A stretch of 57,126 nt of DNA from Candidatus Thorarchaeota archaeon (GTDB taxonomy: Archaea > Asgardarchaeota > Thorarchaeia > Thorarchaeales > Thorarchaeaceae), in assembly GCA_046758445.1 (NCBI GenBank), contig JBHIAE010000018.1, positions 1-57,126 of the forward strand, read 5' to 3'. Position numbers and translations under genes: made by a program. Numbering within the stretch: the stretch's first letter is position 1; each line of letters starts with the position of its first letter. Below the pieces are notes generated by a model. It had not been told where the DNA came from, ran no database searches, and saw only the letters and a program-made list of their open reading frames with translations. Shown piece after piece: positions 28,571 through 44,416 of the stretch.

Positions 28571-30511
28571 ATGACCTTGAAACAGAAGCTTGTTGAACAA
28601 CTCAAAGAGGTCTTCGAGGACCGAGTCGTCACTGAGAAGCATGAGCTTGTTATACATGCTATGGATGTGGGCTCTCTCCCGAAGCAGGTCGGGTGGCTGA
28701 TGAATCCAAACCCTGATGCTATGGTGCAGCCACTGAAACCTGAGGAGGTGAGATTCCTCTACGAGTTTGCAAACAAGCACAAGATCCCATTGGTTCCAAG
28801 AGGCGCAGGTACTTCTGGATATGGGGGCGCCATTCCCCGCAAGGGGGGAATTGTAGTTGACATGCGCGGCATGGACCAGATCATCGACATCGATGAGGAT
28901 AACTTTACCGTCACTGTTGAGCCGGGCCTCTCATGGGCGAACCTGCAGTTTGAACTCAACCGCAAGAACCTCGACCTTCGGTGCTATCCGTCGTCTGGTC
29001 TCTCAGCCACGATAGGTGGATGGGTTGCGCAAGGAGGCGACGGGATTGGCTCTCTCAAGTATGGCACCATTAACGAGAATGTTGTAGAGTTCGAGGTCGT
29101 GTTGCCCACAGGGAAGATCGTCAAGAGCAAGGACACCGATTTGTTCTGCGACACCGAGGGCATCCTTGGAATCATCACGAAAGTCAAGTTGAAGATAAAG
29201 CCACTCACGCCAATCAAGGTGATAGTTTCAAGCTTCGCTGAAAACTATCAGATGGTGCATGCAATCGAGAAGATCATTGAGGACGGTCCCTTGCCATTCA
29301 CTGTCAAGTTCGAGGAGTCGAAATACACGGACCTGAAGAAGCAGATATGGGAGAGCGAAGAGAAGTTCCCATTCCCGGTTCACCATGGCACAATCATGGT
29401 GGCATATGATGGGCCCGAGGAGGAGGCCGAGGAGGGCTTCAGGGTAGTAGAAGAAGCCACCGAGATGTACAGGGGCACTGTTTATGACGAGCACGTAGCC
29501 GAGCACGAATGGCACGACAGATACTACCCGATGAGGATAAAGAAGGCTGGCCCTACTCTTGTGGTTGGCCAAGCTTTTGCCCCGTTGGAGAATCTCGCTG
29601 CCATGCTAGATGACTGGCAGTTCGAGCAAGCCTCCGCGCGTGCAGGACTAGATGGCTATGTGAACTCGAAGAACGCGATCACTTGTATGGCCTATTTCCT
29701 CGAGGATGAGCGACGACGCTTCTTCATGCTCTCCTGGTCTCAGAGCTTTGTAGTCTTCAAGATTGCACAGCGGCATGGAGGTCATGCTCACTCGACTGGA
29801 ATCTGGTTTGCCAATCAAGCCACCCAGTACTTTGGCAAGGAACGGCTTTCGCGTATTCGTGGTGCGAAGCTTAAGTTTGACCCCAAAGAGATTTCCAATC
29901 CTGGAAAGGTCTTTGCCTACTGGCTGCCGTTGATACTAAGATTTGCAAAGTACTTCTTGTGGATATTCTACGACTTGTTCAGAAATGGCCTCGGTCGAAT
30001 CGCACCCATTCTCTTGAAGTGGCTGCAGAACTTGCCGCCGCTGAAGTGGATGCTTCGTTGGGGCAGGGCACATAGCCCTTGGCCAGTGCAGTATGGTCTA
30101 GGATGCTGTATGGTAGACGGTGCAGCAGGAATCGCATCTAGATGGGACTTCGAGAGATTCGGGATGCTACCGTTGTTCGGTCCAAGGCAGTGTGATGTTC
30201 TTTGGATTTCCGGGTCACTCACAAAAAAGATGGCACCTCGATTGCGCAGGGTCTATGAGATGATGCCCGATCCAAAGTTTGTCATAGCCTTTGGACAGTG
30301 CGCTGCATCTGGCGGACTGTTTTGGGACGGCTACTCATTGCAGGTCCCACCCGAAACTGTCGTGCCTGTAGATGTCTATCTGCCCGGTTGTCCACCCAAG
30401 CCTTCGGACTTCGTTCGCGCACACATAATCCTGCAAAACAAGATCAGAGCCGGCACCACTCATTGGCAGATGAAATATGAGAACCAGGATGCCATGGGGA
30501 TGATACAGTGA
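28571..30511 (+). CDS. nuoB: Fusion of GlcD-fold FAD oxidoreductase (N-terminal ~450 aa) and complex I NuoB subunit (C-terminal)
   Basis: PRGAGTSGYGG, YPSS...TIGGWVAQGG and NPGKVF, then an amphipathic linker and GLGCC..., RWDFERFG, PRQCDVL..SG..T.KMAPRLRRVYE.MPDPKFVIA.G.CA.SGG, PVDVYLPGCPP, all in one open frame. Confidence 0.9.
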   Translation: MTLKQKLVEQLKEVFEDRVVTEKHELVIHAMDVGSLPKQVGWLMNPNPDAMVQPLKPEEVRFLYEFANKHKIPLVPRGAGTSGYGGAIPRKGGIVVDMRGMDQIIDIDEDNFTVTVEPGLSWANLQFELNRKNLDLRCYPSSGLSATIGGWVAQGGDGIGSLKYGTINENVVEFEVVLPTGKIVKSKDTDLFCDTEGILGIITKVKLKIKPLTPIKVIVSSFAENYQMVHAIEKIIEDGPLPFTVKFEESKYTDLKKQIWESEEKFPFPVHHGTIMVAYDGPEEEAEEGFRVVEEATEMYRGTVYDEHVAEHEWHDRYYPMRIKKAGPTLVVGQAFAPLENLAAMLDDWQFEQASARAGLDGYVNSKNAITCMAYFLEDERRRFFMLSWSQSFVVFKIAQRHGGHAHSTGIWFANQATQYFGKERLSRIRGAKLKFDPKEISNPGKVFAYWLPLILRFAKYFLWIFYDLFRNGLGRIAPILLKWLQNLPPLKWMLRWGRAHSPWPVQYGLGCCMVDGAAGIASRWDFERFGMLPLFGPRQCDVLWISGSLTKKMAPRLRRVYEMMPDPKFVIAFGQCAASGGLFWDGYSLQVPPETVVPVDVYLPGCPPKPSDFVRAHIILQNKIRAGTTHWQMKYENQDAMGMIQ

Positions 30512-31893: not shown

Positions 31894-32340
31894 TTGAGGC
31901 TTTTCATCGATTTCATCCCCGTGATAGTATGGGCTTTGCTTGCAATAGTCCTAGTAGTCGTGATGCTTCTTGCCTCATGGGTACTGCGTCCACATATCCT
32001 ACAGAACTCTGAGAAGACGTCGACGTATGAATGCGGTGAAGAGCCAATTGGCCCAGCAAGGATGACATTTCCATATAGCTATATTATCTACACCATTCTA
32101 TTCCTAGTCGTTGATGTTATGGGTGCGTTCCTTTGGCTACTGTCAGCATCCCCACTCAGGCTTGATCCCATAGTTGCTTGGCAGACGTTCATTTTCGTTG
32201 TTCTGATTATGGGGGGAATCGGCTTTGCGGTGAGGTTCATCCCGCAGACGTCACTTGACGGAAGAGAAATGGTGACTGCGTATCGCGCGGCCAAGGCCAG
32301 AGCCCTGGCCAAATCAGACAAGTCAGGGAGGACTCACTAG
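31894..32340 (+). CDS. nuoA: Complex I-like subunit A
   Basis: K.STYECGEEP, three TM helices, FLVVDV; TTG start after GGAGG. Confidence 0.9.
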   Translation: MRLFIDFIPVIVWALLAIVLVVVMLLASWVLRPHILQNSEKTSTYECGEEPIGPARMTFPYSYIIYTILFLVVDVMGAFLWLLSASPLRLDPIVAWQTFIFVVLIMGGIGFAVRFIPQTSLDGREMVTAYRAAKARALAKSDKSGRTH

Positions 32341-32990
32341 TGCAAGGCTTCGAGGCATTGTTTGAGCAAGTGGAGTTCTTGCTGATTGCAGGAGTTGTCA
32401 TTGTACTGGCTTATCTCGCCTTGGAGCACCGAGAGATAGTCTATGCCGCCTTCTTCTTTGGAATCATGGCGTCATTTGTTGCTGGATTCTTCCTGCTTCT
32501 AGAGGCACCTTTCATTGCTGGGATGCAGATCGCTGTATATACAGGTGGTATCAGTGCTCTCATTATCTTCGCGGTTCTCCTTTTGCCCAGGGCACAGGAC
32601 GCAACGTTGGAGGCTTTTGCATCACCACGGGCGAAGAGAATGGGCCTCATCCTGTCAGCCACCATAGCCTTCCTCTCAGCCCTTCTAGCCCTAATCTTCC
32701 CATGGAGTGAGTCTTTTCCTGTATCTCGTGTAACGGAATCGCAAGACCTAGGTCTCTTGGCGGATTGGCTCTGGGGCGAGCACGGAATCTATGTTCAGAT
32801 GATTGCGCTGATCATCATCACGGCTCTAGTGGGGGCGATTGCACTGATGAAGATGGACAAGGCCGAGCTCATTGGTGACATCGTTGGTGAGTTTGGTGTG
32901 GAAGCCATGCCAAGTCCGGGTGAACCAACCGATGAGCAAGAAGAGCCAGAGGAACCTGTGTCTGCCAGCGAGGAGGTGGACGACGAATGA
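32340..32990 (+). CDS. nuoJ: Complex I-like subunit J
   Basis: L.APFIA.MQI.VYTGGI..LI.FAV.L motif; five TM helices. Confidence 0.88.
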   Translation: MQGFEALFEQVEFLLIAGVVIVLAYLALEHREIVYAAFFFGIMASFVAGFFLLLEAPFIAGMQIAVYTGGISALIIFAVLLLPRAQDATLEAFASPRAKRMGLILSATIAFLSALLALIFPWSESFPVSRVTESQDLGLLADWLWGEHGIYVQMIALIIITALVGAIALMKMDKAELIGDIVGEFGVEAMPSPGEPTDEQEEPEEPVSASEEVDDE

Positions 32991-33307
32991 TCCCACTCTC
33001 CTGGTATCTTGCAGTAGGTTTCATCCTAATTGGACTAGGTGCCTACGGAATGATGGTCAAGAGGAACCTCATCAGGATTCTCATCGGAGCAGAGATCATG
33101 GCTAACGGAGTCATGATTGCCCTGGTTGCACTAGGTCTCTATGGCCCTGTATTTGCACTAACTGGACAGGGCTTGGTCATTCTCGTGATATCAGTTGCAG
33201 CCGCACACACTGCATTGGCTATGGTCTTGATGCTTGTTTACAACAGACGTTACGGCACTGTCGATTTCGGAACGCCAATCTCGCAGGAGGAGAAGATCAA
33301 TGTCTAG
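32987..33307 (+). CDS. nuoK: Complex I-like subunit K
   Basis: G..G...KRNLI..LI..EIM.NG, GQ......VAAA; three TM helices. Confidence 0.9.
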   Translation: MIPLSWYLAVGFILIGLGAYGMMVKRNLIRILIGAEIMANGVMIALVALGLYGPVFALTGQGLVILVISVAAAHTALAMVLMLVYNRRYGTVDFGTPISQEEKINV

Positions 33308-33827
33308 AGAAAGACCGGTTTCAGGCTCCTCCGTTGGTAGGCAGTTAGTAAACAAGATACCCGGCGTCGAATGCGAGGTCAAGGATGGCAATGTTGTGGA
33401 ATGCGTTGTCCCAGCGGACAAGATACGTGACGTTGTTTCCCTTATTGACGAGTCAGTTCCGCTTGTCTTTCCCGAATCCGTATTTGGCGTAGACCTCACT
33501 GAAGACAAGTATGAGGTCATCTACATATTCTGGGACAGAACCACTAGTACTCTGTACCAGCTTCGTGTTCCATTGGAGGGTCCGAATCCAGCTGTGGACA
33601 GTGTCTGTGACATATTCCCTGGTCTCGAGTGGTACGAGAGAGAAACCTGGGAGATGTTTGGTATAGGCTTCAGTAATCATCCTGATCTTAGGCTCCTATT
33701 ACTCCCTGATGAGCTGGAGGGAAAGTATCCACTTCGCAAGAGCTTCGAAACCGACAGATCTCGACTCAGTGAAACTGGAATCGCACCACCGCGACCACGG
33801 TCAAAGACTGGAGGCGAATCTCAATGA
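33300..33827 (+). CDS. nuoC: Complex I-like subunit C
   Basis: DSV..IFPG.EWYERETWEMFGI.F..HPDLR.LLLP......PLRK; start ATG 33300. Confidence 0.9.
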   Translation: MSRERPVSGSSVGRQLVNKIPGVECEVKDGNVVECVVPADKIRDVVSLIDESVPLVFPESVFGVDLTEDKYEVIYIFWDRTTSTLYQLRVPLEGPNPAVDSVCDIFPGLEWYERETWEMFGIGFSNHPDLRLLLLPDELEGKYPLRKSFETDRSRLSETGIAPPRPRSKTGGESQ

Positions 33828-34960
33828 CGCCTGACATCCTCGATGAAATCACTGAGATCTGGTTTGGACCTCAGCACGTGTCAGCCCATGGATGGGCTGC
33901 AAAGCTCACTCTCGTTGGCGACTATGTGGTCGAATGTGATCCAAATGCGGGGTACTTTCATAGGTCTGCAGAAAAGTGTCTTGAGTTCCGTAACTTCCGG
34001 CAAGGGGCAATGATTATGGAGCGACTGTGCTTGCTGGAAGCGTTTCTCGCAGAGTATCCCTACATTGCCGCTGTTGAGAAGATTGCGGACGTTGAGGTGC
34101 CAGAGAGAGCTAAGGTCATGCGAACCATAATGATGGAGGCTAGTAGAATCCATTCACTCCAGTTCTGGTGGGGTCAGTTCTCTGCCGAGCTCGGGCTGTT
34201 TGCTATGCTCCTGTGGCCATGGGTTGACCGTGAATTCTTCCTAGACACCTTTGAAGAGCTTTCGGGCTCCAGACATGCAGTATCCTACAGCACACCTGGC
34301 GGAGTCAAGTACGACTTCAACGAGAAAGTGCTGACCAAGCTTGATATTGCCCTTGCGCGATTCGAGGAACGAATGCCCAAGATGCGCGATATGTTGATGG
34401 GTAGCCCGGCATTTCGAGTACGTACAGAAGGAATTGGACAGTTCACGCTGAAGCAGGGCCTCAAGATGGGTCTTAGTGGTCCCCCTATCAAAGCATGCGG
34501 ATACCCGATGGACCTGCGGAAAGATTCCCCGGACTCTAACTTGGCCTACAACCTGGCTGACTGGGAGGTTCCGACAGTTGAGAGTTCTGAGCACCCTGGA
34601 GAAAGTGACGCGTACGACAGAATGGTGCAGAGATTCAAAGAAATGGAAACATCCGTCGAGATAATTCGACAGCTACTGCCACAAGTTCCAGATGGCCCAT
34701 TTGTCGATCCAAAAGCGCGTGCCAAGACCAACAGACTCCCGGAGGGAGAGGCATACGGACGTGTGGAGGGTACTAGGGGAATCTCAACAGTATGGCTGAA
34801 GACGACCGAGAAGGCGCAGACTCCCTATAGAGCCAAGATACGCGGACCGTGCTTCAACTCCTACTATTCACTCAAACATCTTGTTCCGAGTTCGAAGTTC
34901 GCCGACTTCATTGCGATATTTGGGTCACTCGACCCGTACCCAGGATGGTGGGATCGATGA
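33824..34960 (+). CDS. nuoD: Complex I-like subunit D (NiFe ligands mostly absent)
   Basis: GPQH...HG, GYFHRSAEK, VPERA..MRT...E..RI.S, PGGV..D, EG.RG, PYR.KIR.P, GSLD......DR. Confidence 0.88.
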   Translation: MTPDILDEITEIWFGPQHVSAHGWAAKLTLVGDYVVECDPNAGYFHRSAEKCLEFRNFRQGAMIMERLCLLEAFLAEYPYIAAVEKIADVEVPERAKVMRTIMMEASRIHSLQFWWGQFSAELGLFAMLLWPWVDREFFLDTFEELSGSRHAVSYSTPGGVKYDFNEKVLTKLDIALARFEERMPKMRDMLMGSPAFRVRTEGIGQFTLKQGLKMGLSGPPIKACGYPMDLRKDSPDSNLAYNLADWEVPTVESSEHPGESDAYDRMVQRFKEMETSVEIIRQLLPQVPDGPFVDPKARAKTNRLPEGEAYGRVEGTRGISTVWLKTTEKAQTPYRAKIRGPCFNSYYSLKHLVPSSKFADFIAIFGSLDPYPGWWDR

Positions 34961-36108
34961 CGGGAGGTGTATTGTTGCAGGTAGACTTTTTTGCGTGGCT
35001 TCAGGGACTGCCAAGCTGGATTTACGGCATCATCCAGTGGCTCTTCTACCTGGTCACCAACATCTTCTACTGGGTATGGGGAGTGTTCACATGGGTATGG
35101 GCAGCCATATTCGACCCGGCCAACTTCTTCTTCCTCATCAGGGCTATTCTTTTCCCTGGTCTTGTCTTCATTGTCTTGACCCTAATCTATACGGTCTGGT
35201 GGACTCGAAAGCTCTGGGGTCGTATCCAGGACAGAAGAGGTCCGTTCCATGTAGGTAAGTACGGAGGCCTACAGCTATTCGCTGACGCCATCAAGTTAGT
35301 GGCCAAGGAAACCATTATCCCAGACAATGCGAAGCGATGGATGTACAGGCTCTTGCCTTCACTACTGCTTGTCATCGTGTTGCTTCCATTTGCCTTCATC
35401 CCTTGGGACCCAATTTGGTACATTGCCGACCTGTCAGTGAGTCTTGTGCTCATCTTCGCATTCTTGACCGCAGTACCCGTAATCGCGCTACTATCTGGAT
35501 GGATCAGCGGATCCAAGTACACACTGATAGGAGGATTCCGAGCAGCCAGCAATCAGTTTGCATGTGAGATTCCGCTCATCATTTCAACTATTGGACCAGC
35601 ATTGTTGGCCGGATCGTTAAGTGTGATGGGGATCGTGCAGGCCCAAGCAAATGTATGGTACATCCTCTTGCTCCCAATCAATGTGGCAACGTTCCTAGTG
35701 GCTTCAATAGCATCGGTGGGAACCTTCCCCTTTGACGCTCCAGTGGCGGACTCGGAGATTATCTTCGGGTGGAGAACCGAATTCTCCGGAATCTACTTCA
35801 CTATGACGTACTTCGCAGAGTTCGCTGAGCAGATGCTGTATTCTGCTCTCATCGTAACATTCTTTCTAGGCGGGTTCCAAGGACCTGACTTCTTGCCAGG
35901 CAGTGTCATCTTCATCATCAAGTTTCTGATAGTGTTCTTCTTCTTCGTAGTTGTGACCTCGTCTTTCCATCGGTTGAGGATGGACCAGATCGTACGTTAT
36001 TGCTGGAAGTACTTGTTGCCGCTATCAATGCTTAATGTTGTACTAGTCTTGCTGGCCATCGCTCACTTCCCATGGCTAGCTGCGCTGCTTGCACTCGGAG
36101 GTGGCTAG
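34957..36108 (+). CDS. nuoH: Complex I-like subunit H
   Basis: RK..GRIQDRRGP, G.LQ.FADA.KL..KE, SKY.LIGGFR, PFD.P.ADSE...G..TEFSG, R.RMDQ....CWK.L.P; start ATG 34957 or a nearby TTG. Confidence 0.9.
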   Translation: MTGGVLLQVDFFAWLQGLPSWIYGIIQWLFYLVTNIFYWVWGVFTWVWAAIFDPANFFFLIRAILFPGLVFIVLTLIYTVWWTRKLWGRIQDRRGPFHVGKYGGLQLFADAIKLVAKETIIPDNAKRWMYRLLPSLLLVIVLLPFAFIPWDPIWYIADLSVSLVLIFAFLTAVPVIALLSGWISGSKYTLIGGFRAASNQFACEIPLIISTIGPALLAGSLSVMGIVQAQANVWYILLLPINVATFLVASIASVGTFPFDAPVADSEIIFGWRTEFSGIYFTMTYFAEFAEQMLYSALIVTFFLGGFQGPDFLPGSVIFIIKFLIVFFFFVVVTSSFHRLRMDQIVRYCWKYLLPLSMLNVVLVLLAIAHFPWLAALLALGGG

Positions 36109-36112
36109 AGAA

Positions 36113-36544
36113 ATGGGAATTCTCAGAAACTTAGGCGACATGTTCCAAATCCTGAGGCACGTCTTCCGTCAGGTCTTCACTAGGCCCTTCACGTACTTCT
36201 ACCCGTTCGAGGACCGTGAGTACCCGGAAACGACCAGGGGCAGACACATACACATTCGCAAGAACTGTACAGCGTGCTCACAATGCGTAAGAGCATGTCC
36301 TGTAGTGGCGATCAGAATTGACAAGGAGGACAAGATGTACGAGAAGGATGCAGCGCTGTACTTTGATTACACTCGATGCATCTTTTGTGGCTTATGTGTC
36401 CAATCATGCAGGTTTGACGCACTGTTCCACACAGCGGTGGTTGATATCAGTGAGGGCGAGAGGGAGGACCTACTGTACGGTCCGGATAAGATAGAAACCC
36501 TCGACAGGGACCCACTGAAGTGGCGTGGGAGGGAGTTCAGGTAA
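36113..36544 (+). CDS. nuoI: Complex I-like subunit I (2x[4Fe-4S])
   Basis: T..YP.E.......RG, CTACSQCVRACP, RCIFCGLCVQSC; start ATG 36113. Confidence 0.9.
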   Translation: MGILRNLGDMFQILRHVFRQVFTRPFTYFYPFEDREYPETTRGRHIHIRKNCTACSQCVRACPVVAIRIDKEDKMYEKDAALYFDYTRCIFCGLCVQSCRFDALFHTAVVDISEGEREDLLYGPDKIETLDRDPLKWRGREFR

Positions 36545-38058
36545 TGCAGGCAATCGAGTTCCCATTCATGGCCATATCACTGGCCGTCCTTTTTCTTGGA
36601 GGGCTGTTGATCTACCTGTTTCGCGGAAGATTAGTGGAATCGTCAGGAAGGGTTGCCGTAGGCATCTCATTCGCGTCGCTTGTCCTGATGATTCCACCGT
36701 TCTATCGCGTACTTGTGGAACCGATTGGTGCTGTATTCGAGGGTGCCACGTGGTCGGAAGTGCTGGGAGAGTTCGGACTCTACATGGATGGAATAGCTTT
36801 CCCAATCACTTTCGCCGTCGTTGTACTAGGTTTCCTCTCAGTCGTTTACGCTGTGGGTTACACTGAGCACTCGGAGAACAAGCCGACGTTCTTTGCAAAC
36901 ACGCTGTTCTTCATAATGGGTATGCAATGGGTAACTCTCGCCACGAATCTACTCGAGTTCTTCATTGCATGGGAATTGATGCTGGTTCCGTCATACTTCT
37001 TAATTCTCTTCTGGGGTCTTCCTGAAACGAAAAAGAGGACCGCCATGAAGTTCTGGTTGTACACACAGTCAGGGGCCGTGTGCATCCTCATCGGATTTGG
37101 ACTGCTGTACTTCTTCACTGGCTCTTTTGAGCTCTACACAATCATCTCGTTACTGCCCGCATTCATTAGCCAACTAGATATGCTGAAACTGATCTTCATT
37201 CTGCTGGCCGCGGGATTCCTAGTCAAGATGGCCGTCTTCCCAATTCACTGGTGGCTTCCTCCTGTCCACGCTGAGGCACCAACACCAATCTCAGTGCTGC
37301 TATCTGGAGCTATGATTGAGACCGGCGCTTACGCTCTGGTCCGGTTCGGAATCGTCACCCTGGGCCCTGCAGCTTTGAACTTGTCATTCTTCGTTGGTCT
37401 TCTCGGTGTCATTACCATGTTCTATGGTGGACTAATGGCGCTTGTTCAGAAGGACATCAAGAGACTCCTTGCTTATTCAAGTGTGAGCCAGATGGGCTAC
37501 GTACTCTTTGCATTAGGAATGATAACCTCTTACGGAGTTGCAGGTGGACTGTTCCATCTCATCAATCACGCATTCTCAAAGGGCCTCTTGTTCATGACGG
37601 CAGGAGCTGTGATCCATCAGACTCATCTCCGCGATGTTGACCTCATGGGAGGTCTCTCGAACAAGATGCCCATAACCGCCTTTGCTGCCGCGATAGGCGC
37701 AATGAGCATAGCGGCAAGTCCACCGCTGTCGGGCTTCGCAAGTGAGTGGATGATGTTCCTTGGAGGATTTGATGCGGTGTTCCTTGGAACTCCTGGAATG
37801 CGACCCGAGTTCCTTATCCTCTCAATCCTCGCTGTGTCCTCTTCAATTGTAAGCGCGGGATACATGCTTCGCTATATCTGGAAGGTCTTCCTTGGGCCTC
37901 ATCCGGACGCGCTTGAAGAAGTGAAGGAGAGCTCCCGATGGATGACTGTCCCAATGATCATTCTCGGGGTTCTGATTGTGCTCTTCGGAATACTCCCAGG
38001 ACTGGCACTTGATGTGATCATACCTGGTGTACAAGGAATTCCATCGATTATCCCATGA
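36544..38058 (+). CDS. nuoM: Antiporter-like subunit, additional NuoM/MrpD-like copy
   Basis: FFIAWELM..P.YF, A.KF.LYT, VK...P.H.WLP..H.EAP, Q.DIKRLLAYSSVSQMG, NHAFSKG, GF.SE; start ATG 36544. Confidence 0.8.
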   Translation: MQAIEFPFMAISLAVLFLGGLLIYLFRGRLVESSGRVAVGISFASLVLMIPPFYRVLVEPIGAVFEGATWSEVLGEFGLYMDGIAFPITFAVVVLGFLSVVYAVGYTEHSENKPTFFANTLFFIMGMQWVTLATNLLEFFIAWELMLVPSYFLILFWGLPETKKRTAMKFWLYTQSGAVCILIGFGLLYFFTGSFELYTIISLLPAFISQLDMLKLIFILLAAGFLVKMAVFPIHWWLPPVHAEAPTPISVLLSGAMIETGAYALVRFGIVTLGPAALNLSFFVGLLGVITMFYGGLMALVQKDIKRLLAYSSVSQMGYVLFALGMITSYGVAGGLFHLINHAFSKGLLFMTAGAVIHQTHLRDVDLMGGLSNKMPITAFAAAIGAMSIAASPPLSGFASEWMMFLGGFDAVFLGTPGMRPEFLILSILAVSSSIVSAGYMLRYIWKVFLGPHPDALEEVKESSRWMTVPMIILGVLIVLFGILPGLALDVIIPGVQGIPSIIP

Positions 38059-38068
38059 GGTGAATTAG

Positions 38069-40318
38069 ATGCTGCTTGGACTACCATATTGGCTTATCCT
38101 CGTAATTCCACTCGGCGGTTCACTGCTCGTTCCATTAGCTGGGCGCTTCAGCGAGAGGATGAGAGATTGGACTCCTGCAATCCTCATGGGCATAACTATG
38201 GTTCTGAGCTGGTCTCTTCTTCTGGAGATTGGGAATCCAGAAACCCAGACGAGCTGGACTTGGATCGCAGTACTTGGACTCAACTTTGAGATCCTTCTTG
38301 ACCCGTTGTCAGTCGTTATGGCCGTCCTCGCGAGTACACTGTGTTTCCTCATCTATGTGTACAGTACTGAGTACATGGCTCACGAGGGTGACCGTGACAG
38401 GTTTTTCTTCCTGATGTTAGCGTTCGGGGGCGGAATGCTCACACTTGTTCTCAGCAACAACCTGCTCATTGCGTTCATCGGTTGGGAGATAATGGGCTTC
38501 TGCTCCTACGGGCTCATCGGCTTTTGGAGCGATAGGAGGAACCCGATGGAGGTTGAGCTTGACCCGATTGTTTACAAGAACCCCCTTCTTCAGTTCGAAA
38601 CTGAGGGCCAGTACAACACTCATTGCGGGACCAAGGCCTTCGTTGTGACAAGAATCGGTGATGCATTCATGCTCGGGGGCATTCTAATTCTCTTTGTCTT
38701 CACTGGCACGTTCTCTTTCACAGAGATGGCCACCAATGCACAGGGATGGTGGCAGGTCATGGCCAGCATCGGATTGCTGGTGCCGACTTTCTTGCTGATT
38801 TTTCTCGGTGCAATTGGGAAGTCGGGTCAGGCACCACTGCAGGTTTGGCTCCCTGAAGCAATGGCTGGTCCTACGTCGGTTTCAGCGCTTATTCATGCAG
38901 CAACAATGGTGAAGGCCGGCGTTTACATTACTGCAAGGTTTCTTGTCACTATGGTTGAAGCCGCAGGAAGCAATGGCAATAGTGGAGGTCATGTCTATTC
39001 TACACTCCAAGCGGTCGGCTTTGAGGCTGCCCTTTCGTTCTTCATAGTGGTAGCAGTCATCGGAGGTATCACGGCCCTTATGACAGCAACGATGGGAATG
39101 GTTTCGAACGAGCTTAAGCAGATTCTCGCATTCTCGACTCTGTCCCAGCTTGGCTACATGATGCTGGCATTGGGCACTGGTGGGATTCTTGAGGCCAATA
39201 ATCTTCACTTCGATTATGCTTACCTGAGCAGCATACTTCATGTGGTTTCACACGGCGCATTCAAGGCACTCCTGTTCTTGGCGTCAGGTGGTGTGATACA
39301 TGCTTTACACACGAAGTATATCTCCAAAATGGGAGGACTTCGAAAACACATGCGAAAGACGTTCACAATCATGTGGATAGGCATTCTAGCTCTAGCCGGG
39401 ATTCCGCCGTTTTCAGGATTCTGGTCCAAGGATTCCATCATCGAATACACCTACGAGCTGGCCGTTCATTGGACCAATCCACTCGGATGGATTCTGTTCG
39501 TGTTTGCTGTTCTGGCCGCAGCATGCACCATCTTCTACAGCCTTCGATTGATGGGTATCACCTTCTATGGACCACCGAAGGAAACGCACGATTCCCACGA
39601 TAGTCAAGAATCACATGAAGAAGAGTCTGAAGAGCATGTGGAATCAGAGGAGGAGCATCATGACGATCACCATTCTGACCCCCACGACCCGGGTCCAGCT
39701 ATGATGGTTCCTCTCTACCTCTTGGCCGCATTCACAATCATAGCATTCGTGGTGTTTCCGTTCATCCAGAACATCGTGCTAGAATCCAGTCAAAGCTGGG
39801 CTGAGATCATGAATGAGATGATCATGGTCAAGCTAACTATGCCTGGAGTAGTACCATTCGCCATCACTCTGTTTGCCCTCGCAATTGGAGGTATCCCAGG
39901 CTACATAATCTACATCAGGAACGCAGACCGGAAGAACACAATCATCCCTGAGACTGGCTTCAGACGTCGAATCCACAACTTCCTCAAGCACCGGTGGTAC
40001 ATCAACGAGTTCTACTACTGGGTCCTGAACAAGTTCCTCAATGCCGCTGAGTGGTACAGAGTCAGGGTTGACAACAACATCATAGATGGAATCGACTTCA
40101 AGTCTGCAGATTCGGCGAAAGCCATATCTGGGAGGGCTCGTTGGTTTGACGACAACGTGGTAGACGGGTTTGCGGAAGGTATCTCCACACAGAGTGTCGC
40201 AGGATCTGAGAGAGGTCAGCGCGCTCAGACTGGAGTGGTGAATGACTACGTTGGAGTCATAATGTTCGGAATTGGGCTGCTGGTGATTATTGCCCTAATC
40301 ACAATGGGGGTGATATAG
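38069..40318 (+). CDS. nuoL: Complex I-like subunit L
   Basis: GWEIMGFCSYGLIGFW, KAF..TRIGD, GKSGQ.PL..WLP.AM.GPT.VSALIHAATMV, LAFSTLSQLGYM, HGAFKALLFL, GFWSKD, QTG.V..Y. Confidence 0.92.
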   Translation: MLLGLPYWLILVIPLGGSLLVPLAGRFSERMRDWTPAILMGITMVLSWSLLLEIGNPETQTSWTWIAVLGLNFEILLDPLSVVMAVLASTLCFLIYVYSTEYMAHEGDRDRFFFLMLAFGGGMLTLVLSNNLLIAFIGWEIMGFCSYGLIGFWSDRRNPMEVELDPIVYKNPLLQFETEGQYNTHCGTKAFVVTRIGDAFMLGGILILFVFTGTFSFTEMATNAQGWWQVMASIGLLVPTFLLIFLGAIGKSGQAPLQVWLPEAMAGPTSVSALIHAATMVKAGVYITARFLVTMVEAAGSNGNSGGHVYSTLQAVGFEAALSFFIVVAVIGGITALMTATMGMVSNELKQILAFSTLSQLGYMMLALGTGGILEANNLHFDYAYLSSILHVVSHGAFKALLFLASGGVIHALHTKYISKMGGLRKHMRKTFTIMWIGILALAGIPPFSGFWSKDSIIEYTYELAVHWTNPLGWILFVFAVLAAACTIFYSLRLMGITFYGPPKETHDSHDSQESHEEESEEHVESEEEHHDDHHSDPHDPGPAMMVPLYLLAAFTIIAFVVFPFIQNIVLESSQSWAEIMNEMIMVKLTMPGVVPFAITLFALAIGGIPGYIIYIRNADRKNTIIPETGFRRRIHNFLKHRWYINEFYYWVLNKFLNAAEWYRVRVDNNIIDGIDFKSADSAKAISGRARWFDDNVVDGFAEGISTQSVAGSERGQRAQTGVVNDYVGVIMFGIGLLVIIALITMGVI

Positions 40319-40319
40319 A

Positions 40320-41864
40320 ATGCAGTTCAATTTTATCGATAACTTGATCGCAATGCTGCCAATGGAATACATACTGCCCGTTATGCTGTTTCTACCAGTA
40401 TTGGGAGCATTCATCGCCTACCCCTTAGGCAAGAGGGGTGCGCGAGCACTCACTCTGTTGATCACGGCATTCGAGCTAGTTCTTGCGATTCTCTTGGCTT
40501 TTGCAATCGACACTTCGACCGATGCAATGTCATACTCTTGGAGATTTGTGATGGGCACAATCCCCTTTGGAGGTGCATCGGCGAACCTGCAGATACTCCT
40601 CGGAGTCGATGGGATATCCGTGGCCATGATATTCCTATCGAACTTGGTTGTCTTTGTAGCCGCTCTTAACTCGAACCACATCCACAAGTCTGAAGGGCTC
40701 TACTATGCCTTCTTCCTTCTCCAGGCAACAGGTCTGCTGGGGGTCTTTATGTCACTAGACTTGATCAGCTTCTTCATTTTCTGGGAGCTTGTCCTGATTC
40801 CCTTGTTCTTCATAATAGGTCGCTGGGGCGAGGAAGGCTGCGAACACGCGGCTGTGAAGTTCTTCATCTATACTCACCTAGGCTCTGCAGTGATGCTTGT
40901 AAGCTTCATGGCACTCTACTTCCTTGGACCTGGTACGTTTGAGATGGTTGCCCTTCGCGAAGTTGGACTCCCTGTGGATGTTCAGATAGGATTTGCTTTG
41001 GCTGTCTTCATGGGAGCAGGAGTTAAGCTGCCAGTCTTCCCGCTTCACAACTGGCTACCTTGGGCTCACGTGAAAGCACCAACGCCTGGCTCGGTCATTC
41101 TTGCGGGAATCCTGTTGAAGATGGGCGGGTACGGGTTCATCAGGCTAGGCCTATGGATGGTGCCTGAGGGCTTCATGCATCTCAGTATCCCACTTGCAGT
41201 GCTGGCTGTCTTTACTTGTATCTACGCAGCGTTTGTTGCACTCGCACAAACGGACCTCAAGAGCATGGTGGCTTATACTTCGATCAACCACATGGCATGG
41301 GTACTGCTGGGAGTTGCTATCGGCGCGTTTGCTTTCCAGGCCGGCGTCACCCCTGACATCAGAGCGGCCGCAAGTCTTGCAGTTCAGGGAGCTGTCTTCA
41401 TGATGGTGTCACATGGGGTGATAATATCAGTGATGTTCATCATGGCCGGTCAGCTTACCTACGCGGCTGGTTCAAGGGAGATTCCTGAAGTCCAGGGTCT
41501 CATGGCAAAGGCCCCAAGATTGTCAGCGGTCCTCATTTTGGCATCCTTTGCAGCCTTCGGCCTTCCCGGTTTCAGCGGTTTCATTGCAGAAGCTTTGGTC
41601 CTCTTTGGGTCTGTCAGTATCTACATCTGGTCAGGATTGATAGCGTTCGGGATCTTTGTCACGGTCGGTTATCTTCTATGGACACTAAACCGAATCGTAT
41701 TCAGTGACCCGGACCCTGAGAAAGAGGTTGTAGATGCTCCTTGGAGTGACCTCATCGCGCCCATACTGATGATGGTCCCTGTGCTTGTGCTTGGATTCTG
41801 GCCTGACCTGATCCTCAATATGGTGACTCCGGTGGTCAACTTCATGCTTGGAGGTGTCCCATAG
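40320..41864 (+). CDS. nuoM: Complex I-like subunit M
   Basis: GVDGIS, FFIFWEL.LIP.F, A.KFFIYT, VKLP.FPLH.WLP.AH..AP..GS.ILAG.LLKMG.YG, D.K..VAY.S..HM, MVSHG, GLPG.SGF.AE. Confidence 0.92.
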   Translation: MQFNFIDNLIAMLPMEYILPVMLFLPVLGAFIAYPLGKRGARALTLLITAFELVLAILLAFAIDTSTDAMSYSWRFVMGTIPFGGASANLQILLGVDGISVAMIFLSNLVVFVAALNSNHIHKSEGLYYAFFLLQATGLLGVFMSLDLISFFIFWELVLIPLFFIIGRWGEEGCEHAAVKFFIYTHLGSAVMLVSFMALYFLGPGTFEMVALREVGLPVDVQIGFALAVFMGAGVKLPVFPLHNWLPWAHVKAPTPGSVILAGILLKMGGYGFIRLGLWMVPEGFMHLSIPLAVLAVFTCIYAAFVALAQTDLKSMVAYTSINHMAWVLLGVAIGAFAFQAGVTPDIRAAASLAVQGAVFMMVSHGVIISVMFIMAGQLTYAAGSREIPEVQGLMAKAPRLSAVLILASFAAFGLPGFSGFIAEALVLFGSVSIYIWSGLIAFGIFVTVGYLLWTLNRIVFSDPDPEKEVVDAPWSDLIAPILMMVPVLVLGFWPDLILNMVTPVVNFMLGGVP

Positions 41865-43372
41865 TGATGCAGTTCGAAGTATTCACAGACTTCCTTAGGT
41901 CGCTCTTTGCTCCGTTTGTTGACCTAGTTGTCACCTACATACCTTCAGAGTGGATGGCCTCACTTCCCGCCTTGACTCTGATTGCATTTGCATTCTTAGC
42001 TCTCATCGTCGGTCTGCGCCGAAGTCCTCTGGTGTTGAGTTTCATTGGAGTGTTCCTAGCAGGTGTGGAGATGGTACTTCTCGAGTCCTCAACCTATGGG
42101 TCCTCTTTTGGAGGACTGTTCGTACGGGACGCATTTGGTGACTTCTTCATCTGGATTATTCTCATCGTAGCTGTGTTTGTCCTGCTCTCATCTACAACAT
42201 TCGGCGGCAACAGGGGAACATACAACTTCCTACTACTGATATCATTTGCAGGCGCAATCTGGGTCGTCATGGCTACTGACCTTGTTGCGCTCTTTGTCGC
42301 CTGGGAGTTGATGAGCACACCGACATACGTACTCGCGGCTCTCGGACCACATAGAGGAGCGATTGATGGTGCCACCAAGTACTTTGTAATGGGGCTTGTG
42401 TCGACGACGCTGATGGTCTTCGGCATAGCCATTGTCTATGGTGCCACGGGAGTGACCAACATGGCACTTGTCGCTGATGCCATAAGCGCAGTCTGGACCA
42501 CTGTGCCAACCATTGCCGCTGAGGCTTATGCAATCCTTCTTGCGATGGTGCTGTTTCTCATTTCTTTTGGGTTTAAAGCGGCCACATTTCCAGGATGGAT
42601 GTGGGTACCCGACACATACTCCACAGCCGATGGTAGTGTGACCGGGTACTTGGCCGGCGCGACGAAGAAGACTGCTGTGAGTGCTCTCTTGCGGATACTG
42701 GTTGTGGCATTCGTAGTTGCTCGCCTAGAGTGGATGCCGCTCATTGTAGCTGTGGCGATTCTGACGATGATCATCGGAAACACGATGGCACTGGCCCAAC
42801 GGAACATAATGCGCATGTTCGCATATTCGTCAATCATGGTCATGGGAATACTCTTCGTAGGGATGTCAGTGGGAACGCAGTATGGAATCGCGGCAGCCAT
42901 GTTCACAGCATTTGCACATGCACTGATCAAGACAGGGGCCTTCATCCTGACTTGGGCAATGGCTGTTCGCTTGGGTAAGGAGATAACCTATGACGACTTG
43001 GCGGGTCTCAGCAGACGCTCTCCGGGCGCAGCTGCGCTACTTGCCATCTTGGTGTTCGCGCTAGCAGGTGCACCATTCACAGCAGGTTTCTGGTTCAAGT
43101 GGCTGCTGATTCCTGCCAGTGCAGTTGAGATTGGACTCTGGTGGTTGGCACTGATAGCGGTCTTGAACTCTGTGTTCGCTCTGGGTTACTATCTCAGAGT
43201 CCTCAGGTATTGCTACTTCATGGAACCCAATGATGATACTACGTTTCGACTTGCTCGAGCACCGATGCTTGCTGTCGCACTAGCTGTGATTGGCACGATA
43301 GCACTGGGAATCATGCCAAGTCTTGTGCTAGACTATGCTTTCGATGCTGCTGCCTTGTTCGCGGTGCCGTAG
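41864..43372 (+). CDS. nuoN: Complex I-like subunit N
   Basis: FVAWELMS.P.Y.L, A.KYF..G, GFK....P...WVPD.Y, GN..AL.Q.N..R..AYSSI, LAG.P..AGF..K, YYLR. Confidence 0.9.
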   Translation: MMQFEVFTDFLRSLFAPFVDLVVTYIPSEWMASLPALTLIAFAFLALIVGLRRSPLVLSFIGVFLAGVEMVLLESSTYGSSFGGLFVRDAFGDFFIWIILIVAVFVLLSSTTFGGNRGTYNFLLLISFAGAIWVVMATDLVALFVAWELMSTPTYVLAALGPHRGAIDGATKYFVMGLVSTTLMVFGIAIVYGATGVTNMALVADAISAVWTTVPTIAAEAYAILLAMVLFLISFGFKAATFPGWMWVPDTYSTADGSVTGYLAGATKKTAVSALLRILVVAFVVARLEWMPLIVAVAILTMIIGNTMALAQRNIMRMFAYSSIMVMGILFVGMSVGTQYGIAAAMFTAFAHALIKTGAFILTWAMAVRLGKEITYDDLAGLSRRSPGAAALLAILVFALAGAPFTAGFWFKWLLIPASAVEIGLWWLALIAVLNSVFALGYYLRVLRYCYFMEPNDDTTFRLARAPMLAVALAVIGTIALGIMPSLVLDYAFDAAALFAVP

Positions 43373-43768: not shown

Positions 43769-44302
43769 TCATTCGACTTGGGCAGTGCTATGTTTCTTCA
43801 CACCTTGTTCTATGAGCTCTGTGAAAAGCTCTTCAACATTCTCTCCTGTCTTAGCGGAGGTTTCCACGTAGTTGACATTCAACCACTTGGCAAGCATCTC
43901 TCCGGCCTCTGGTGGAACTCGTCTGTCAATCAAGTCTATCTTGTTTGCCACAAATGCTACGACCGCGTTCGGGTTCACAGAAATGAAGTTACGATACCAT
44001 TCATACACACCCATGAATGACGCTGGCGACGTTACATCATAAACAATGAATGCAATGCTTGCTCCAGCCATATATCGAAGTCTAAGCTCCTTAAATGATG
44101 GCTGTCCTCCTAGGTCCCACGTGATCAATTGGACGGGGACCTTCTTCCCTCTCGGTGTTTCAACTTCAAGGTTCTTCAACAGAATATTGGTCCCCAGAGT
44201 CGCCTGGTAGGAGGCTGCAAATGTTCCCTCCATATACCTGATCAAGCAGCTTGTCTTCCCTGTGGTCGCATCCCCCAGAGAAACCATTTTGAACATATAC
44301 AT
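43769..44302 (-). CDS. Rab/Ras-like small GTPase
   Basis: G1 GDATTGKT, G2 YQATLG, G3 WDLGGQ, G4 NKID, G5 ETSAK; FKELR..YM, YDVT. Start ATG 44302 or TTG 44320. Confidence 0.9.
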   Translation of the reverse strand: MYMFKMVSLGDATTGKTSCLIRYMEGTFAASYQATLGTNILLKNLEVETPRGKKVPVQLITWDLGGQPSFKELRLRYMAGASIAFIVYDVTSPASFMGVYEWYRNFISVNPNAVVAFVANKIDLIDRRVPPEAGEMLAKWLNVNYVETSAKTGENVEELFTELIEQGVKKHSTAQVE

Positions 44303-44416
44303 TGGCCTGCCTGATCCCAATTCCGATACTTCCAGATTCCTTACGGCTACTGACGGGCATTTGGAATATAACAATCCATTCTGTCTGTAATCCGTTGGAC
44401 TGTTTGACAATTGGGC

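Follow-up and report, generated by a model that had tools for sequence, protein, structure and literature searches.

The closest described relatives of the system studied here are complex I enzymes of the “2M” type, a design that is said to go back to Chadwick, Hemp, Fischer and Orphan in 2018 (ISME J 12:2668), under a title that reportedly announces convergence. Here we analyze a complex I-like operon in a stretch of 57,126 nucleotides from a Candidatus Thorarchaeota archaeon (contig JBHIAE010000018.1, positions 1 to 57,126; the whole stretch is called the window), which carries genes for four antiporter-like subunits in the order M1 (NuoM-like), L (NuoL), M2 (NuoM-like), and N (NuoN-like). 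Its product is very probably a four-antiporter complex I-like pump, an instance of the known 2M design in its archaeal M-L-M-N form, in which the lateral helix of NuoL would span one more subunit. A 26-residue insertion in NuoL is given as a hallmark of 2M enzymes in a passage of PMC9040806, and a passage of PMC7300363 cites a 2M “clade 2” for heterotrophic marine Thaumarchaeota. The locus is thus not novel in kind: both the helix insertion and the 2M design have been in print since 2018, and an archaeal clade is known. The literature we searched, which did not take in the text of Chadwick et al. (2018), contained nothing that links Thorarchaeota (Thor) or other Asgard archaea to 2M; Asgard complex I is discussed by Appler et al. 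(bioRxiv 2024.07.04.601786), but the fourth pump of Thor is not.

Archaeal 2M loci (Bathyarchaeota, locus L057; Nitrososphaerales, L058) are like Thor in their K/I-M1-L-M2-N gene order, in a distance of 76–77 residues between the anchors of the NuoL helix (defined below), and in having no NuoEFG. Their M2 and N are orthologous to those of Thor (M2 clade supported at 95 in the Shimodaira–Hasegawa approximate likelihood ratio test, SH-aLRT), and a common M1 lineage is not rejected. Unlike these archaea of the TACK group, Thor has the operon order A-J-K-C-D-H-I, a NuoB fused to an FAD-linked oxidase, and a Glu in transmembrane helix 8 (TM8) of M1, where the TACK subunit has Gly. Bacterial 2M loci (Nitrospira, a Chloroflexi genome, and Limisphaerales) share with Thor the four antiporter-like subunits and the second D..IDG module of the helix, but they are ordered L-M-M-N. 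Since both of their M subunits fall inside the bacterial NuoM radiation and their NuoL in a bacterial clade, the bacterial form has an origin separate from the archaeal one.

Two other groups were compared. The NuoL fold of Thor is that of three-pump complex I, NDH-1, and Fpo (E. coli NuoLMN, T. thermophilus Nqo12-14, and cyanobacterial NdhF/D/B), and all Thor subunits keep the axis of TM5 Glu, TM7 Lys, and TM12 Lys/Glu seen in canonical complex I. Unlike the canonical enzyme, Thor has one more M-type subunit, one more helix module (anchor distance 76 versus 48–52), and an M1 that lacks the TM8 Lys. The five-pump Complex_I_3 of “Ca. Manganitrophaceae” follows the same logic, with a 26-residue insertion for each extra pump (PMC9040806); unlike the Thor enzyme it is bacterial, with five pumps in total and a pair of MrpD-like subunits instead of NuoL (PMC9040806).

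Four antiporter-like genes in one operon

The complex I-like operon lies on the + strand at 28.5–43.4 kb of the window. According to Pfam matches it begins with a fusion of an FAD-linked oxidase and NuoB, followed by an open reading frame (ORF) of 183 amino acids, NuoA, J, K, C, D, H, and I, and then M1-L-M2-N; the head subunits (NuoEFG) are missing from this pump. Directly after nuoI, four consecutive + strand genes match Proton_antipo_M (PF00361), and only NuoL among the four also matches Proton_antipo_N (PF00662) above threshold. The genes are as follows.

28571..30511, + strand: FAD-linked oxidase fused to NuoB (PF01565, PF02913, and PF01058 in one ORF of 646 amino acids)
31894..36544, + strand: nuoA-J-K-C-D-H-I, the other core subunit genes of this operon (Pfam matches)
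36544..38058, + strand: M1, the first NuoM-like antiporter subunit (PF00361, E 1.5e-71)
38069..40318, + strand: NuoL, the distal antiporter subunit with the lengthened lateral helix, 749 amino acids (PF00662 and PF00361)
40320..41864, + strand: M2, the second NuoM-like subunit, 514 amino acids (PF00361, E 2.9e-59)
41864..43372, + strand: NuoN-like subunit, 502 amino acids from GTG 41864, or starting at ATG 41867 (PF00361, E 1.1e-51)

The ORF of M1 opens at GTG 36520 (512 amino acids), but ATG 36544 (504 amino acids) is the likelier start. Junctions between the genes are tight (nuoI/M1 -1 nt, M1/L 10 nt, L/M2 1 nt, and M2/N -1 nt). The stop codon of nuoI overlaps the ATG of M1 (TAATG), with no gene between them, and M1 is translationally coupled between nuoI and nuoL; the gene for a fourth pump is itself present in the window. 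The gene order, the FAD–NuoB fusion, and the two NuoM-like genes on either side of nuoL had been read from the letters alone in a preliminary description of this DNA, and Pfam agrees with all three. The same description proposed a four-antiporter complex of the 2M type. We find four PF00361 genes in a single nuo cassette, an insertion of about 26 residues in NuoL, and an extra subunit that is NuoM-like; gene count, helix length, and the nature of the extra subunit thus support the proposal.

The lateral helix of NuoL

As our measure of helix length we took the anchor distance, from the conserved W of RWYINEFY to the conserved Q of QTG..Y, which shortly precedes TM16. This distance is 76 in Thor NuoL, and 48–52 in E. 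coli NuoL, as in other three-pump NuoLs (~50). Among 149 representatives of NuoL (at 50% identity) the distances fall into classes near 24, 50, 76, and 102, so that across the family (P0125–P0273; L037–L136) the helix consists of a 24-residue head plus zero, one, two, or three modules of 26 residues. NuoLs with three modules (for example P0253 and P0190) show three D..IDG motifs spaced by 26, and those with none adjoin a single M/N-type gene. The parts of the Thor helix and its surroundings are listed below.

39590..39670, + strand: acidic, His-rich low-complexity loop of NuoL between TM14 and TM15, residues ~508–534 (predicted disordered, pLDDT <50)
39992..40216, + strand: lateral helix HL, residues 642–716, one continuous predicted helix of 75 residues (DSSP on the AlphaFold2 model)
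40070..40147, + strand: lateral helix module 1, residues 668–693 (DNNIIDG...); the cyanobacterial NdhF motif VDYNVVDG aligns here
40148..40225, + strand: lateral helix module 2, residues 694–719 (DDNVVDG...), followed by QTG at 720; the mycobacterial NuoL motif aligns here
40241..40303, + strand: TM16, the anchor helix of NuoL, residues 725–745 (DSSP on the AlphaFold2 model)

An AlphaFold2 model of NuoL, built from an alignment of 79 sequences, has a predicted local distance difference test score (pLDDT) of 87.6 and a predicted template modeling score (pTM) of 0.85. The closest solved structures are NdhF and NuoL (Foldseek against PDB, E 1e-24 to 1e-30), which reflects the general NuoL fold. 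As a control, a NuoL of the standard Thor type was modeled with AlphaFold2 and has 52 helical residues (594–645) before TM16; the modeled difference is ~23–26 residues, corresponding to ~35–39 Å of alpha-helix. That the helix might be no longer than in standard NuoL, a possibility raised in the preliminary description, is contradicted by both measures (76 versus 48–52 between anchors, and 75 versus 52 modeled residues), and the lengthening by ~26 residues that it likened to 2M enzymes amounts to one module more than the standard. Loop insertions, including that at 508–534, which lies outside the helix extension, probably explain the remaining length of NuoL relative to the E. coli protein.

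Within the helix, VDNNIIDG starts at residue 667 and FDDNVVDG at residue 693, exactly 26 codons apart (the Asp codons, GAC, are at 40070 and 40148, as previously described), and both fit the pattern D-x-x-hydrophobic-hydrophobic-D-G, with which each module starts. The placements of the cyanobacterial NdhF and mycobacterial NuoL motifs were taken from phmmer alignments. Taken alone, the Thor sequence shows no significant self-similarity (7 matches over 26 residues; 28 of 1000 shuffled versions score as high). In a profile of 79 sequences, an offset of 26 gives the sole positive self-match (16.0, versus -21.7 +/- 6.7 at other offsets), and the peak persists in a profile without Thor. A tandem repeat is also visible in the consensus of 26 long-helix NuoLs (FDxxxxDGxVNGxA...S.....FDxxVVDGxVN...S), and in full-length Thor homologues the anchor distance is 76–77 in all 112, with two motifs exactly 26 apart in 108 of them. 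Comparative evidence thus argues strongly for a repeat, and the signal in the single sequence is modest.

The one module present in three-pump relatives is like module 1 at its start and like module 2 at its end, which is the pattern of an internal tandem duplication; that alignment therefore does not tell which of the two modules corresponds to it, or which of M1 and M2 comes first along the arm. At the DNA level the two modules share 35 of 78 nucleotides overall and 17 of 24 in the motif, the level expected from shared amino acids alone. The DNA-level similarity pointed out earlier is therefore weak, and we rejected it as a sign of a recent repeat. It adds nothing beyond the shared motif, and the duplication in the NuoL helix is old.

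Identity of the M and N subunits

Trees of the M and N subunits were built from 97 sequences under LG+G4 and from 61 sequences under the C20 mixture model, and the two agree. M2 forms one clade (SH-aLRT 95) with the M at the third position of all archaeal M-L-M-N clusters; its sister group is bacterial/Fpo NuoM, with a support of 100 for both together. N lies inside the canonical NuoN clade (100). M1 belongs to the M-like half of the tree (100, with M2) but is not part of the canonical NuoM clade; it falls among basal branches whose order is unresolved, together with M1 of Thaumarchaeota and Bathyarchaeota and with M from the Asgard K-L-M-N clusters. The tree of both M copies that had been suggested as a check therefore sets M2 beside NuoM and M1 apart from it. 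Judging by these trees, M2 is the orthologue of canonical NuoM and N that of NuoN. A long branch with 100% support separates M1 from M2, so we rejected a recent duplication; the two are deep, old paralogues and not a duplicate pair. Their key residues differ as follows.

M1: TM5 Glu, TM7 Lys, TM8 Glu, TM12 Glu (central TM8 Lys replaced)
M2: TM5 Glu, TM7 Lys, TM8 Lys, TM12 Glu (the E/K/K/E signature of NuoM)
N: TM5 Glu, TM7 Lys, TM8 Lys, TM12 Lys (the E/K/K/K signature of NuoN)

The TM8 Glu of M1 lies within the motif SGAMIETGAY, at the position of E. coli NuoM K265. It is common to M1 of the Asgard families f18 and f5 and to M of some Asgard K-L-M-N clusters; M1 of the TACK archaea (Thaumarchaeal and Bathyarchaeal) has Gly at this site.

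Three-pump Thaumarchaeal complex I (L059, Nitrososphaerales; L060, Nitrosopelagicus; L130, Nitrosopumilaceae) has the order M-L-N with a single M, which is of the M1 type and not of the canonical NuoM type. M2 of the canonical type is found only in the four-pump relatives.

Origin and distribution

All of the best 120 NuoL homologues are Thor proteins (725–783 amino acids), and the order M1-L-M2 is found in 28 of 29 Thor loci. Of 76 genomes sampled from the Thor family, ~53 have the NuoL type of the window, and 14 have only a standard second cluster. Many Thor genomes (for example L049, G128:C5, and L055, G075:C1) carry this second, standard J-K-L-M-N cluster, whose NuoL of ~675 amino acids is 43% identical and has one helix module; genera g4 and g5 have the standard cluster only, and the window genome is without it.

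Outside Thor, Bathyarchaeota, Nitrososphaerales, and the Asgard families f18, f5, and f12 also have the order M1-L-M2-N with orthologous M2 and N. In a tree of the NuoL core, from which the helix was excluded, Thor falls in an archaeal clade (95) with an unresolved interior, in which helix states are mixed; because of this mixing, we conclude that helix modules are gained and lost together with M2. From the M2 clade and the N clade in our own trees, and from gene order, the subunits appear to share their ancestry with those of the Thaumarchaeal/Bathyarchaeal form.

The pattern also allows a more speculative reading, which we consider unlikely. M2 and N are sister to all bacterial/Fpo NuoM and NuoN, whereas M1 and L are archaea-specific and shared with Asgard K-L-M-N clusters. 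The archaeal M1-L-M2-N arm might accordingly be a mosaic or an ancestral architecture and not a late addition; Thaumarchaeal M1-L-N and bacterial L-M-N would then be alternative reductions of a four-pump ancestor, each having lost one M and one 26-residue module, and M1, with its TM8 Glu or Gly, would be a mechanistically distinct pump module.

The preliminary description entertained a possibly independent origin, in which both the additional M gene and the doubled helix module would have evolved inside the Asgard or Thor lineage, convergent with the published 2M clades. The Thor and f18 NuoL clade is indeed not sister to TACK 2M NuoLs, the base of the archaeal clade being unresolved; Thor M1 groups weakly (84) with f5 M1 and not with TACK M1; and helix modules have clearly been gained and lost repeatedly. 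Nevertheless, an independent invention seems very unlikely to us, given the gene order shared with Bathyarchaeota, Nitrososphaerales, and the three Asgard families, the union of all archaeal M2 in one clade and of the N subunits in one canonical clade, and the long, fully supported branch between M1 and M2, which speaks against a recent duplication. Forcing all M1 into one clade costs almost nothing (delta log likelihood 0.06), and the approximately unbiased (AU) test does not reject their monophyly (p 0.49).

Helix length and the number of pump genes

We compared helix length with the number of neighboring pump genes in a sample of 301 Asgard genomes (20 nuoL neighborhoods) plus 80 named loci.

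2 pump genes (archaeal loci L050 and L051): anchor distance 23–24
3 pump genes (13 Asgard K-L-M-N loci and 3 Thaumarchaeal K-M-L-N loci): anchor distance 49–52
4 pump genes, M1-L-M2-N (window, Thor G236, Asgard f18 and f5, Bathyarchaeota L057, and Nitrososphaerales L058): anchor distance 75–77

The helix class agrees with the pump gene count in 25 of 26 archaeal loci, and two sister pairs differ in both (L058 versus L059, and G061 versus G013; in G061 the anchor distance is 78, and the four pump genes are split over two contigs). The archaeal loci thereby provide a clean data set for the rule of one 26-residue helix module per pump subunit, and the natural states with zero, one, two, and three modules could guide structural work on how pump subunits dock on the strap helix.

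Several observations weigh against a four-pump arm spanned by the longer helix. Among the archaeal loci the one exception is L047 (G011:C25, Asgard family f12), which has three modules (anchor distance 104) with only four clustered pump genes. A helix of the 76 class stands beside only L-M-N in loci of Ignavibacteria, Planctomycetota, Terriglobia, Udaeobacter, and Binatia, and some complexes of Manganitrophaceae have the long helix without a matching extra nuoM (PMC9040806). In addition, M1 may not pump like a canonical subunit, as its sequence lacks the TM8 Lys. Helix length does not follow the number of pump genes strictly, and, because of the bacterial loci with a 76-class helix and only L-M-N, it is by itself no proof of a fourth pump.

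It follows that the helix extension might have nothing to do with the fourth pump gene, being a surplus strap or one of other use, with M1 working elsewhere or alternating with M2 in a three-pump arm. The bacterial loci and the Manganitrophaceae complexes just cited speak for such a strap. We nonetheless judge it highly improbable, in view of the agreement across archaeal loci (including both sister pairs), the coupling of M1 between nuoI and nuoL, and the fact that the genome holds no other complex able to host M1: searched by family, the entire assembly (92.7% complete) yielded exactly four PF00361 genes, all in the operon, and neither MnhB (PF04039) nor MnhG (PF03334), families that were detected in control genomes. 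The single-contig Thor assembly G236 likewise has exactly four PF00361 genes, all in the operon.

In locus L047, the cluster order is B-C-D-H-I-J-K-M1-L-M2-N, and the genome has a further, lone antiporter-like gene of 631 amino acids on another contig (G011:C2:124626-125576). The bacterial loci L069, L074, L079, L081, L083–L085, L093, and L097 combine the helix lengthened by 26 (76–77) with one nuoM and one nuoN within 10 kb.

In Mrp (CPA3) antiporters, the small subunits MrpB/C/E/F/G adjoin MrpA/MrpD. The preliminary description had asked whether the first M could belong to a separate complex of this type; we rejected Mrp membership of M1 because no MnhB or MnhG gene was found in the 92.7%-complete assembly and no gene lies between nuoI and M1, and all PF00361 genes are in the operon. 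That M1 and NuoL are the remnant of an Mrp-type module adjoining a three-pump complex is hardly credible. In its favor, M1 matches Proton_antipo_N, a domain typical of MrpA/NuoL, weakly and below threshold (E 0.0008). Against it stand the failure to find MnhB or MnhG genes in that assembly, a single NuoL/MrpA-like gene in the genome, the NuoM-type TM12 Glu of M1, and Thaumarchaeal M-L-N complex I, in which the only M subunit is an M1 orthologue.

A proposed mechanism

For the 2M-type pump that we favor, we infer assembly in one arm, subunit order, stoichiometry, and direction as follows. The membrane arm would hold four antiporter-like subunits (NuoL, M1, M2, and NuoN) in place of the usual three, with the amphipathic C-terminal helix of NuoL running along the arm, its far end anchored by TM16. 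With one module in the three-pump enzyme and two here, the helix would gain ~39 Å (26 × 1.5 Å), enough for one more subunit. The first residue of the module aligns with D563 of E. coli NuoL, where a kink at P564-N566 (motif D563-P564-L565-N566) is the contact of the helix with NuoM in structure 3RKO (PMC3274701). Because the E. coli motif is the kink that touches NuoM, the two motifs of Thor are probably two docking points for M-type subunits, 39 Å apart. As M2 and N are orthologues of the canonical NuoM–NuoN pair, the order along the arm is likely L-M1-M2-N.

Canonical complex I moves four ions with three pumps and the E-channel. By analogy, four pumps and the E-channel would move five ions per two electrons, so that an electron pair from a low-potential donor would drive the pumping of more ions, or the machine would gain leverage in the backward direction. 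The FAD–NuoB fusion would be the donor side, and the suitability for reverse electron transport put forward in the preliminary description is possible but speculative. To our knowledge, assembly in one arm and the fifth ion are hypotheses for the published 2M enzymes too. On this model the main complex I-like enzyme of most Thorarchaeota would be a four-pump machine, which bears on the energy conserved or spent per electron pair in these Asgard archaea and thus on how metabolism is modeled in the archaea related to eukaryotes.

Neighboring gene

Ras-family small GTPases are typical of Asgard archaea, and a gene for one lies directly downstream of the operon (43769-44410, - strand; PF00071, E 1.6e-38).

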